Shown here in pieces: positions 10,175 through 10,362 of a stretch of 64,000 bases of DNA. The notes beneath the pieces are model-generated. The model worked only from the letters and a program-made list of their open reading frames with translations, was not told the DNA's origin and did no database searches. Position 1 is the first letter of the stretch. Each line of letters opens with the position of its first letter. Source of the DNA: an uncultured beta proteobacterium (GTDB taxonomy: Bacteria; Pseudomonadota; Gammaproteobacteria; Burkholderiales; Casimicrobiaceae); assembly GCA_963733985.1 (NCBI GenBank), contig CAVTFF010000003.1, positions 101,619-165,618 of the forward strand, read 5' to 3'. The translations under genes were made by a program, and so were the position numbers.

Positions 10175-10209
10175 GGTGTCCTCGCTAGCTTTACCGTTCA
10201 TTGGAGTAC

Positions 10210-10362
10210 CTTCGCGCTCCGCGCTCCGGTATTCGCGGCCTCCGCGCCGCTTGATTGTTCGCGCTGCTGCTTGGGGTCGGCCGCCGCCCGCGCTCGCAGA
10301 CGCGCTCTTCGAGCCTTGGCTTCGCCCTGCTCGCGCGGGCGTCCCGGGGCGGCCCTTCTCGC
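10210..10362 (-). repeat. GC-rich stop-codon-abutting repeat (family B copy) filling the cbbL-cbbS spacer
   Basis: Minus-strand core (10334..10281): GCGAGCAGGGCGAAGCCAAGGCTCGAAGAGCGCGTCTGCGAGCGCGGGCGGCGG. It is near-identical to 38641..38694 (+). It also contains GCGGAGGCCGCG (10245..10234). Confidence 0.75.

Follow-up and report, generated by a model that had tools for sequence, protein, structure and literature searches.

Probable insertion of a small dispersed repeat at the cbbL stop codon of an uncultured betaproteobacterium

Operon MITEs (miniature transposable elements with inverted repeats) such as Correia/NEMIS, ERIC/IRU, RUP and Chunjie are small, non-autonomous and co-transcribed, and can change mRNA processing or stability. 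They have terminal inverted repeats and make mostly TA duplications, and to our knowledge they neither target stop codons nor rebuild start codons. Repetitive extragenic palindromes (REPs) affect mRNA stability as well, and in malE-malF they set the relative stability of the upstream and downstream mRNA segments. Known targets of IS200/IS605 elements are motifs of 4–5 nt, e.g. TTAC and TTGAT. Entry into ATGA overlaps without breaking of an operon has, as far as we know, so far been discussed mainly for MIRUs (mycobacterial interspersed repetitive units), which Supply et al. reportedly described in 1997. For MIRUs, insertion at start codons together with a coupled internal open reading frame (ORF) has been described (PMC12548453), and tetranucleotide direct repeats and filled and empty sites are documented for them (PMC3184786). 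Here we analyse a GC-rich repeat in the spacer between the RuBisCO genes cbbL and cbbS, within a window of 64,000 nt (GenBank assembly GCA_963733985.1, contig CAVTFF010000003.1, positions 101,619–165,618) from an uncultured betaproteobacterium of the Casimicrobiaceae. The spacer probably (we estimate about 0.8) consists of an ancestral 23 nt and a 165-nt insertion of a small, non-autonomous, strand-specific mobile repeat whose family is abundant in Casimicrobiaceae-like Betaproteobacteria.

By description, not by sequence, this family resembles MIRUs in many respects. Both comprise repeats of 40 to over 100 nt that lie inside operons in the orientation of the genes, are co-transcribed with them, form tandem arrays, contain G+C-rich internal inverted repeats and show filled and empty sites with short direct repeats; in MIRUs the ends of an internal ORF overlap the upstream stop and the downstream start (-4, ATGA), as they may in the short forms of the present family. 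The hosts differ (Actinomycetota for MIRUs, Betaproteobacteria here), the present family has a larger, covariation-supported fold and an explicit GGAGG motif, and its copy in the cbb operon shows an ORF overlap at the left end and none at the right. REPs, bacterial interspersed mosaic elements (BIMEs) and REPINs, whose associated enzyme is the Y1 HUH protein RAYT, are likewise high-copy, G+C-rich palindromic repeats at gene 3' ends and between operon genes, with mosaic modules, stems kept by compensatory change and a single-stranded DNA (ssDNA) hairpin as the likely substrate. REPs, however, are single hairpins of 20–40 nt that carry a GTAG or CGTC tag and mostly occur as inverted pairs, whereas the repeats described here have several helices over 100–165 nt, an exact TGA junction, a strong sense bias and a ribosome-binding module. 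With the IS200/IS605-derived palindrome-associated transposable elements (PATEs) the family shares the lack of terminal inverted repeats, subterminal hairpins at both ends, loops that are stable in ssDNA, and insertion with strand and orientation specificity directly 3' of a fixed short motif. Classical operon MITEs are also small non-autonomous insertions that leave the operon unbroken, but the present family lacks their terminal inverted repeats, except for inverted left modules in some composites. Its nearest counterparts in function and design would appear, by analogy, to be MIRUs, and REP/BIME and IS200/IS605-derived elements are the nearest in composition, number of copies, mosaic construction and probable DNA chemistry.

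The cbbL-cbbS spacer and its relatives

Both cbbL and cbbS lie on the minus strand, with the cbbL stop TGA at 10365-10363 and the cbbS ATG at 10174-10172. The initial annotation had described the spacer (10175-10362) as 188 nt long and as holding a GC-rich element directly after the cbbL TGA, and we find the same; the element begins TGAGCGAGAAGGGCC. It had also reported that a 54-nt core (10334..10281, minus strand) recurs downstream of ftsZ at 38641..38694 on the plus strand. The recurrence stands, with three mismatches instead of about four. The number of matches to the core expected by chance is 0.00 (dinucleotide-preserving shuffles), and without gaps the match between the two copies extends to 62 nt at 92%. 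Further on, the two copies indeed have GCGGAGGCCGCG in common (10245-10234 and 38731-38742), and a third occurrence lies at 61158-61169.

A metagenome scan with CbbS provided 80 related cbbL-cbbS loci, and the spacer was extracted from every one. The closest relative found, locus L113, has a CbbL C-terminus 98% identical and a CbbS 94% identical to those of the window. Its spacer is 23 nt long (gcgTGA-accgaaaagccagcgaggacatc-ATG), while the window reads gcaTGA-[162 nt]-TGA-acggtaaagctagcgaggacacc-ATG. By BLAST, window 13327-10363 aligns with L113 1-2977 and window 10200-7746 with L113 2975-5422. A single TGA of L113 (2975-2977) is thus reused by both window flanks, so that the insertion amounts to 165 nt, made up of the 162-nt element and one TGA. 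In the relatives that come next (L114, L116, L117 and L118) the spacers measure 14–27 nt. Across the whole set the spacer is at most 62 nt in 68 of the 80 loci, which agrees with the earlier remark that the two genes are normally tightly linked, and the repeat family is present in none of the 80. As close relatives do not share this spacer sequence, it is not a unique conserved leader. An insertion in the lineage of the window is the parsimonious reading of these sequence comparisons. Alignment to the copies of other genomes places the repeat at 10201-10362, where it is 80–94% identical to copies in other genome bins, and leaves the final 23 nt of the spacer (10175-10197) as ancestral. The cbbL stop codon, the native cbbS Shine-Dalgarno (SD) sequence and the 23-nt leader are all intact. 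Neither a terminator-like nor a promoter-like site was seen on the sense strand of the spacer, and an exact look-up of the window's CbbS returned no matching record.

Twelve of the 80 related loci (L115, L137, L140, L143, L189, L148, L164, L172, L181, L182, L188 and L191) have a cbbL-cbbS spacer of more than 100 nt. Several of these hold unrelated palindromic repeats, for example of the GTTCCCGCGCAGGCGGGAAC and CTCTCCCCTTAAGGGGAGAG types, and seven share a conserved leader of ~110–147 nt that ends ...CATCAATCAACGAGGT. Judging from such sequences, landing or elaboration in the cbbL-cbbS spacer has recurred in other lineages as well.

Distribution, fold and junctions of the family

A degenerate 25-nt pattern built from four window copies, GGCNCGAAGNGCGCGTCNNCGAGCG, matched at least 112 stretches in species-representative genomes. 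About a dozen of the matches listed lie inside coding regions of unrelated phyla and are due to chance; the other listed matches all fall in bins named Casimicrobiaceae, 'uncultured beta proteobacterium' (MFD), Burkholderiales or Betaproteobacteria, with several contigs in each bin among the matches listed. We collected loci of 8 kb each, 1.23 Mb in total, in which profile searches found 145 copies. Copies of the repeat are dispersed over the genomes of a single group of uncultured Betaproteobacteria from soil. The spacer is therefore, as the initial annotation had proposed, a member of a dispersed repeat family with many copies beyond the window, and the analogy that was drawn there with REPs is apt in that both are structured and rich in GC and lie at the 3' ends of genes and within operons. 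Rfam 15 gave no match at gathering score in the window, and at a permissive threshold the spacer gave only a chance snoRNA match (E = 8.7); PLSDB plasmids and viral contigs had no match to the family, and no description of it was found in Rfam or in the literature searched. We take the family for a new one among elements of a sort already known, and not for a control device specific to RuBisCO. It has three subtypes: a long one, which includes the cbbL-cbbS and ftsZ copies, and two short ones, beginning A-TGA-GCGAGCGGGGCGAAGCC and GAG-TGA-GCGAGGCGGGCGAGCG. Left and right modules are optional and occur in mosaic combinations (the left module is found without the core in L113), and in tandem arrays neighbours have a TGA in common.

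To characterize the fold, 49 long copies were aligned with MAFFT (alignment A2) and pairs were counted for five helices: an outer stem, P1 (GCAG/CTGC), hairpin 1 (GGC-GAA-GCC), hairpin 2 (GCYC-GAA-GRGC) and P3 (GCGGCC...GGCCGC). Pairing was seen in 96.0% of cells, compared with 31–46% when the partners were slid by 1–3 columns; both sides had changed in nine pairs (62 cells), and none of 500 shuffles reached any observed pairing measure. Two of the most informative pairs are free Ns in the search pattern or lie outside it. One pair in P1 is A-U in 28 copies, G-C in 16, G-U in 3, C-G in 1 and U-A in 1, with no mismatch, and one in hairpin 2 is C-G in 34, U-A in 12 and G-C in 2. Among the three mismatches that separate the two window copies is a compensatory change (GCTC/GAGC vs GCCC/GGGC), and P3 has compensatory variants as well (GCGCCC/GGGCGC, GGTC/GACC and TCGGCC/GGCCGA). 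In the short copies (alignment A3, n = 61) hairpin 2 and P3 are 94.6% paired, with 0 of 500 shuffles as good on most measures. Given no structure, RNAalifold recovered the outer stem, P1, hairpin 2 and P3, and extended P1 in place of hairpin 1. The hairpin-1 segment varies in length and sequence across subtypes and stays a hairpin in most (GGCC-GAA-GGCC, GCG-AAG-CGC, CGCGAGGCC-GCA-GGCCGAGCG and GCCTCGGCC-GCGA-GGCCGAGGC); in one short subfamily it is weak only. G.T pairs outnumber A.C pairs 50 to 11, indicating that the given strand is the folded one. This strand, as DNA or RNA, folds into a conserved multi-helix structure composed of the outer stem, P1, two GAA-loop hairpins and P3 over the GGAGG motif, which in the cbbL-cbbS copy (10243-10239) is overlapped by the 3' strand of P3. 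The initial annotation had called the repeat structured and proposed that the spacer be folded: covariation in the family bears this out, but the thermodynamics of the spacer do not, being like those of shuffled sequence (z = -0.13).

Both apical loops are GAA closed by C-G. GCGAAGC is a classic extra-stable DNA mini-hairpin (PMC13037366). Such loops favour a role as single-stranded DNA, and are compatible with a role as RNA too. An anti-sequestor-like competitor of P3, pairing GGCCGCC of the left module with GGCGGCC at the 5' strand of P3, was considered and dropped, as 53.5% of cells pair, like shuffles; given the poor alignment of the left module this is a weak negative. A hammerhead-like core (CUGANGA), for which CTGAGCG was a candidate, was dismissed on visual inspection, and Rfam gives none either. 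We also asked about membership in the REPs. CGTC-tagged REPs have a stem of 8–9 bp starting with A/T pairs, a 4–5-nt loop and a CCA tail (PMC3733652). The CGTC of the core (GCGCGTC) sits in a multi-helix fold with G-C stems and GAA triloops, so we do not place the family among them, nor among the GTAG-tagged REPs, whose architecture it lacks.

Relative to the core pattern, upstream TGA triplets peak at -22 (21 copies), -30/-31 (14), -34/-35 (8) and -50 to -52 (27), and downstream ones at +60 (24 copies), over a background of 1.4–1.9 per position. Long ORFs with high G+C at third codon positions (GC3) end at the upstream offsets and begin at the downstream one. The base preceding the right TGA is A in 19 and G in 13 of 32 copies and never a pyrimidine, so the junction reads ATGA or GTGA, and in 27 of the 32 it lies 6–9 nt past GGAGG. 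Short forms end with GGAGG, ~7 nt and A or G followed by TGA; they keep a stop on the left and rebuild an SD-spaced ATG or GTG for the downstream gene. Since TGA stands on both sides after insertion, the upstream gene keeps its stop codon. Family members integrate at TGA, usually a stop codon and often part of an ATGA or GTGA stop/start overlap. In a test of codon-position G+C, the left-flank gene was on the element's strand in 86 cases vs 17, and between co-directional flanks the element was sense in 60 and antisense in 11. The cbbL-cbbS copy, between co-oriented operon genes, has their orientation.

An all-against-all comparison of the loci revealed five further filled/empty sites among other genome bins. 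At a stop/start overlap, ATGA in L015 and L072 becomes ATGA[element]ATGA in L097; the comparison of L072, L097 and L015 with L081 shows TGA[element]TGA; further sites come from L043 against L081 and L018, from L063 against L103, and from L081 against L072, the last at an ATGA on the opposite strand. The only exactly repeated flank in filled/empty pairs is the triplet TGA, which occurs once in the empty sites. Features of the spacer and of the other window copies are collected in Table 1.

Table 1. Positions of the repeat, its parts and its further copies in the window
Feature	Position	Strand	Basis or remark
cbbL stop TGA, left copy of the target triplet	10363..10365	-	L113 alignment ends at 10363
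Inserted repeat, long subtype, 162 nt (165 nt with one TGA)	10201..10362	-	absent from L113, L114, L116, L117, L118
Left module GCGAGAAGGGCCGCCCCGGG, homologous to consensus GCGCCGCCGGGCCGCCCCGAGG	10343..10362	-	alignment A2
Core fold	10285..10341	-	covariation counts, RNAalifold, hairpin-1 variants
Outer stem, CGCCCGCGC with GCGCGGGCG	10341-10333 with 10293-10285	-	part of core fold
P1, GCAG with CTGC	10330-10327 with 10299-10296	-	part of core fold
Hairpin 1, GGC-GAA-GCC	10326-10318	-	part of core fold
Hairpin 2, GCTC-GAA-GAGC	10314-10304	-	part of core fold
P3 stem-loop, GCGGCC (10284-10279) with GGCCGC (10240-10235)	10235..10284	-	38-nt semi-variable loop
Right module AATACCGGAGCGCGGAGCGCGAAGGTACTCCAA	10201..10233	-	follows GGAGGCCGC motif likewise in L039, L043
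Right TGA copy (direct repeat)	10198..10200	-	
Ancestral 23-nt spacer with cbbS Shine-Dalgarno GAGGA (10183-10179)	10175..10197	-	base-for-base alignment to L113
Copy 1, cbbL-cbbS	10232-10342 (profile match)	-	
Copy 2, short subtype	12955..13076 (profile match 12955-13056)	-	starts at TGA 13076-13074 of large TamB-like gene
Copy 3, long subtype, downstream of ftsZ	38616..38744 (profile match 38633-38744)	+	begins TGAGCCGAGG
Copies 4 and 5, tandem short-subtype pair downstream of rplS	61066-61172, 61181-61281	+	start at TAAGCGAGCC

Mode of movement and consequences for the operon

Our account of how the family moves is tentative. Its members may be hitherto undescribed 'operon-safe' betaproteobacterial elements, convergent with MIRUs, that would insert as ssDNA in HUH fashion 3' of (R)TGA and bring along their own SD, a terminal purine and a bridging mini-frame. 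An IS200/IS605-like or RAYT-like HUH enzyme would act on them in trans. We propose such trans HUH/Y1 mobilisation because of the lack of terminal inverted repeats, the subterminal hairpins with DNA-type loops, and the orientation-specific insertion 3' of a fixed motif; it is put forward with lower confidence than the mini-frame described next. In the short forms a mini-frame would run from an ATG overlapping the upstream stop to a TGA overlapping the downstream start. The distance from TGA to TGA is 2 mod 3 in 17 of 23 short copies (107, 110, 116 and 119 nt), and 16 of these 17 frames are open. Terminating ribosomes might reinitiate in the mini-frame, melt the fold and reach the next gene, whereby translational coupling would be carried across the element, a design that has also been proposed for MIRUs. 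We have moderate confidence in such a mini-frame.

Several observations weigh against our reading of the spacer and its family. Neither a transposase nor an autonomous parent was found in the 1.2 Mb of 8-kb loci. The TGA flanks would fit a true 3-bp target duplication and an element-borne terminal TGA equally. The core is antisense to its neighbours in some composites, in 11 of 71 co-directional cases and in L081. The mini-frame count is inflated by shared descent, and by length class 4 of 10 are 2 mod 3. Thermodynamic stability is unremarkable for the spacer and single copies (z from -0.13 to -2.0), a measure that is uninformative at this G+C content. The assembly is indel-prone, as the frameshifts in cbbL and ftsZ show, and exact lengths are uncertain. 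Furthermore, the cbbL-cbbS copy has no mini-frame, its TGA-to-TGA distance being 165 nt (0 mod 3), and it rebuilds no start codon, because cbbS never overlapped cbbL. Finally, an ATG at 10366-10364 that overlaps the cbbL stop opens a 63-codon frame into cbbS and in phase with it, which gives rise to a 718-codon frame in the ORF list.

In the same 1.2 Mb of 8-kb loci we found no RAYT and no TnpA or TnpB with the family's ends, and the HEARO and IS605-orfB guide-RNA families of Rfam gave no match. A tblastn search for IS200/IS608-like TnpA returned one match (E = 0.039) in an Lrp/AsnC-like gene (putative heme d1 biosynthesis), which we attribute to chance.

The frame just described could mean that the spacer is coding, for a small protein or for a CbbS lengthened at its N-terminus through reinitiation at the ATG over the cbbL stop, and the short subtypes have an open mini-frame too. 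Such open frames are common at this G+C content, however, and variation in the family tracks base-pairing, not codon position. Moreover, three long copies with the same right module measure 164, 165 and 196 nt and have no conserved frame in common, and cbbS keeps its own SD and ATG while relatives lack the extension. We regard a coding function as very improbable, and read the in-phase run into cbbS as chance, because the sister lengths differ and the assembly is indel-prone. SECIS-like recoding of the TGA was rejected as well: the cbbL-cbbS copy has its second TGA in frame (165 nt), but at 107–119 nt the short subtypes give the family no common phase. What selection maintains might instead be an RNA, if the host has adopted the element as an intercistronic device: a barrier or processing site that sets mRNA-segment stability, or a portable coupling and ribosome-binding module. 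This would accord with a co-transcribed, mostly sense-oriented element whose fold is kept by compensatory changes, also between orthologous-site copies in different species (L002/L005; L001/L032/L077), with the excess of G.T over A.C, with a GGAGG properly spaced from rebuilt starts, and with the overlap of P3 and SD. Yet occupancy of a given site differs between close relatives, the same stop codon carries different repeat families in the window and in L113, and the orientation bias and strand asymmetry are equally expected from an asymmetric target and an ssDNA intermediate; on balance such adoption seems unlikely.

Less probable still is a classical MITE moved by a DDE transposase with a 3-bp TNA target duplication. 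Duplications of this kind are attributed to the IS5/IS1031 group or to Harbinger-like elements. In all filled/empty pairs the TGA triplets on either side are exact direct repeats, and some long composites have inverted left-module copies of 20–25 nt at both ends. Terminal inverted repeats are, however, lacking in the cbbL-cbbS copy (GCGAGAAGG... / ...GGTACTCCAA) and in the short subtypes, the TGA of the composites lies within the inverted module (TGAGCGCC...GGCGCTCA) and is not a direct duplication, and insertion is orientation-specific with respect to an asymmetric triplet. A conserved cis-regulatory leader specific to the cbb operon, e.g. a riboswitch-like or CbbR-linked RNA, would suit a highly structured segment between subunit genes that need balanced expression. 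We give it almost no credence, since neither the five closest cbbLS relatives nor any of the 80 related loci have it, the same element follows ftsZ, rplS, the TamB-like gene and many unrelated genes in other bins, and Rfam holds no match. It is also highly improbable that the insertion is an artefact of an error-prone long-read bin. Repeats can mislead assemblers, and cbbL and ftsZ are frameshifted in the window, but the errors observed are single-base indels and not 165-nt insertions. In addition, the junctions are exact and have the canonical family form TGA...TGA, collinearity with L113 holds for both flanks, and the family occurs in short-read assemblies too, to judge by contig names.

If the spacer holds an inserted mobile repeat, as we think, the copy in the cbb operon would be a co-transcribed passenger, with the cbbL stop and the ribosome-binding site of cbbS left intact. 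The most that a stable fold between the two cistrons might do, along the lines suggested in the initial annotation, is alter mRNA decay or processing, or loosen coupling; it might retard 3'-5' decay of the cbbL part of the mRNA or present a site for an endonuclease. The predicted consequence for the operon is most likely small. A long spacer that is a lineage-specific insertion provides no evidence of special control of cbbL and cbbS, and serves instead as a natural experiment in how much distance can be put between the two cistrons. Its direct bearing on RuBisCO regulation is modest, and the interest lies mainly in mobile DNA and operon architecture, as the family unites an exact stop-codon junction at TGA, a built-in ribosome-binding site with start repair, and a covariation-backed fold. 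Should our account of its movement be true, a second, unrelated and copy-rich family would make MIRU-like movement approachable, with hundreds of copies, several subtypes and many filled/empty sites from which to work it out. Annotation would benefit too, since in high-G+C bins repeats of this kind give rise to false long ORFs and make gene ends indistinct.

Further copies, assembly errors and composite elements

A search of the window with two profile hidden Markov models made from the family found five copies at four sites. A stop triplet precedes each site: the TGA of cbbL, the TGA of the TamB-like gene, a TGA 26 nt past the ftsZ TAA, and the TAA after rplS. The core of the ftsZ copy lies at 38633-38694 and its GGAGGCCGC motif at 38731-38742. 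This long copy is separated from the ftsZ TAA by 25 nt (38591-38615, AGCGAGCCGGGCGAAGTCGCGTGGC) that resemble the truncated left end of a short-subtype element, which suggests nested or successive insertions. The TamB-like gene that bears the short-subtype copy is convergent with cbbR. At the identical stop codon L113 has a different repeat, a tandem pair of left module and G-rich hairpin module right after the TGA (L113 246-410); judging by these sequences, the TamB-like stop codon is evidently a recurrent landing place.

With respect to assembly quality, cbbL has one extra G near 10738 (minus strand), where GCGCGCGGGCATC corresponds to GCGCGC-GGCATC in L113. The last ~125 codons are thereby frameshifted, while cbbL of L113 is intact with 499 open codons. 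The extra G is probably an assembly indel, although cbbL may be a real pseudogene. Similarly, ftsZ (37381-38823) is split over two frames, with the N-terminus in 37381.. and the rest in 37619..38590, and several dcw ORFs appear fragmented (22100-25500). Such a shift of frame in an essential gene speaks for a long-read assembly prone to indels, and exact lengths in the window carry a corresponding uncertainty. In rplS (60566-61195) the TAA at 61066-61068 is out of frame, and the frame runs through the repeat to a TAG at 61193-61195, adding ~45 Arg/Ala-rich codons. The extension results from a homopolymer error in GAAAAG or else represents an L19 tail encoded by the repeat.

Larger and nested forms were seen in other loci. 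In L081 a composite (1740-2010) has its core antisense to both flanking genes, and on the genes' strand it still runs ATGA-[left module ... GGAGGTCTCGC]-ATGA, which indicates that the core can form an inverted inner part of larger elements whose ends follow the same logic. In bin SJ348 (L014, L019, L076 and L078) short-subtype copies are nested in a different inverted repeat, CTCTCCCCGCG...CGCGGGGAGAG, which adds one more level to the mosaic. Finally, right after a TGA and before the phosphoribulokinase gene, L113 carries at 5422-5549 an element of another repeat family (CGAGCGTCGCGAA...), which also fills the cbbL-cbbS spacer of L140.

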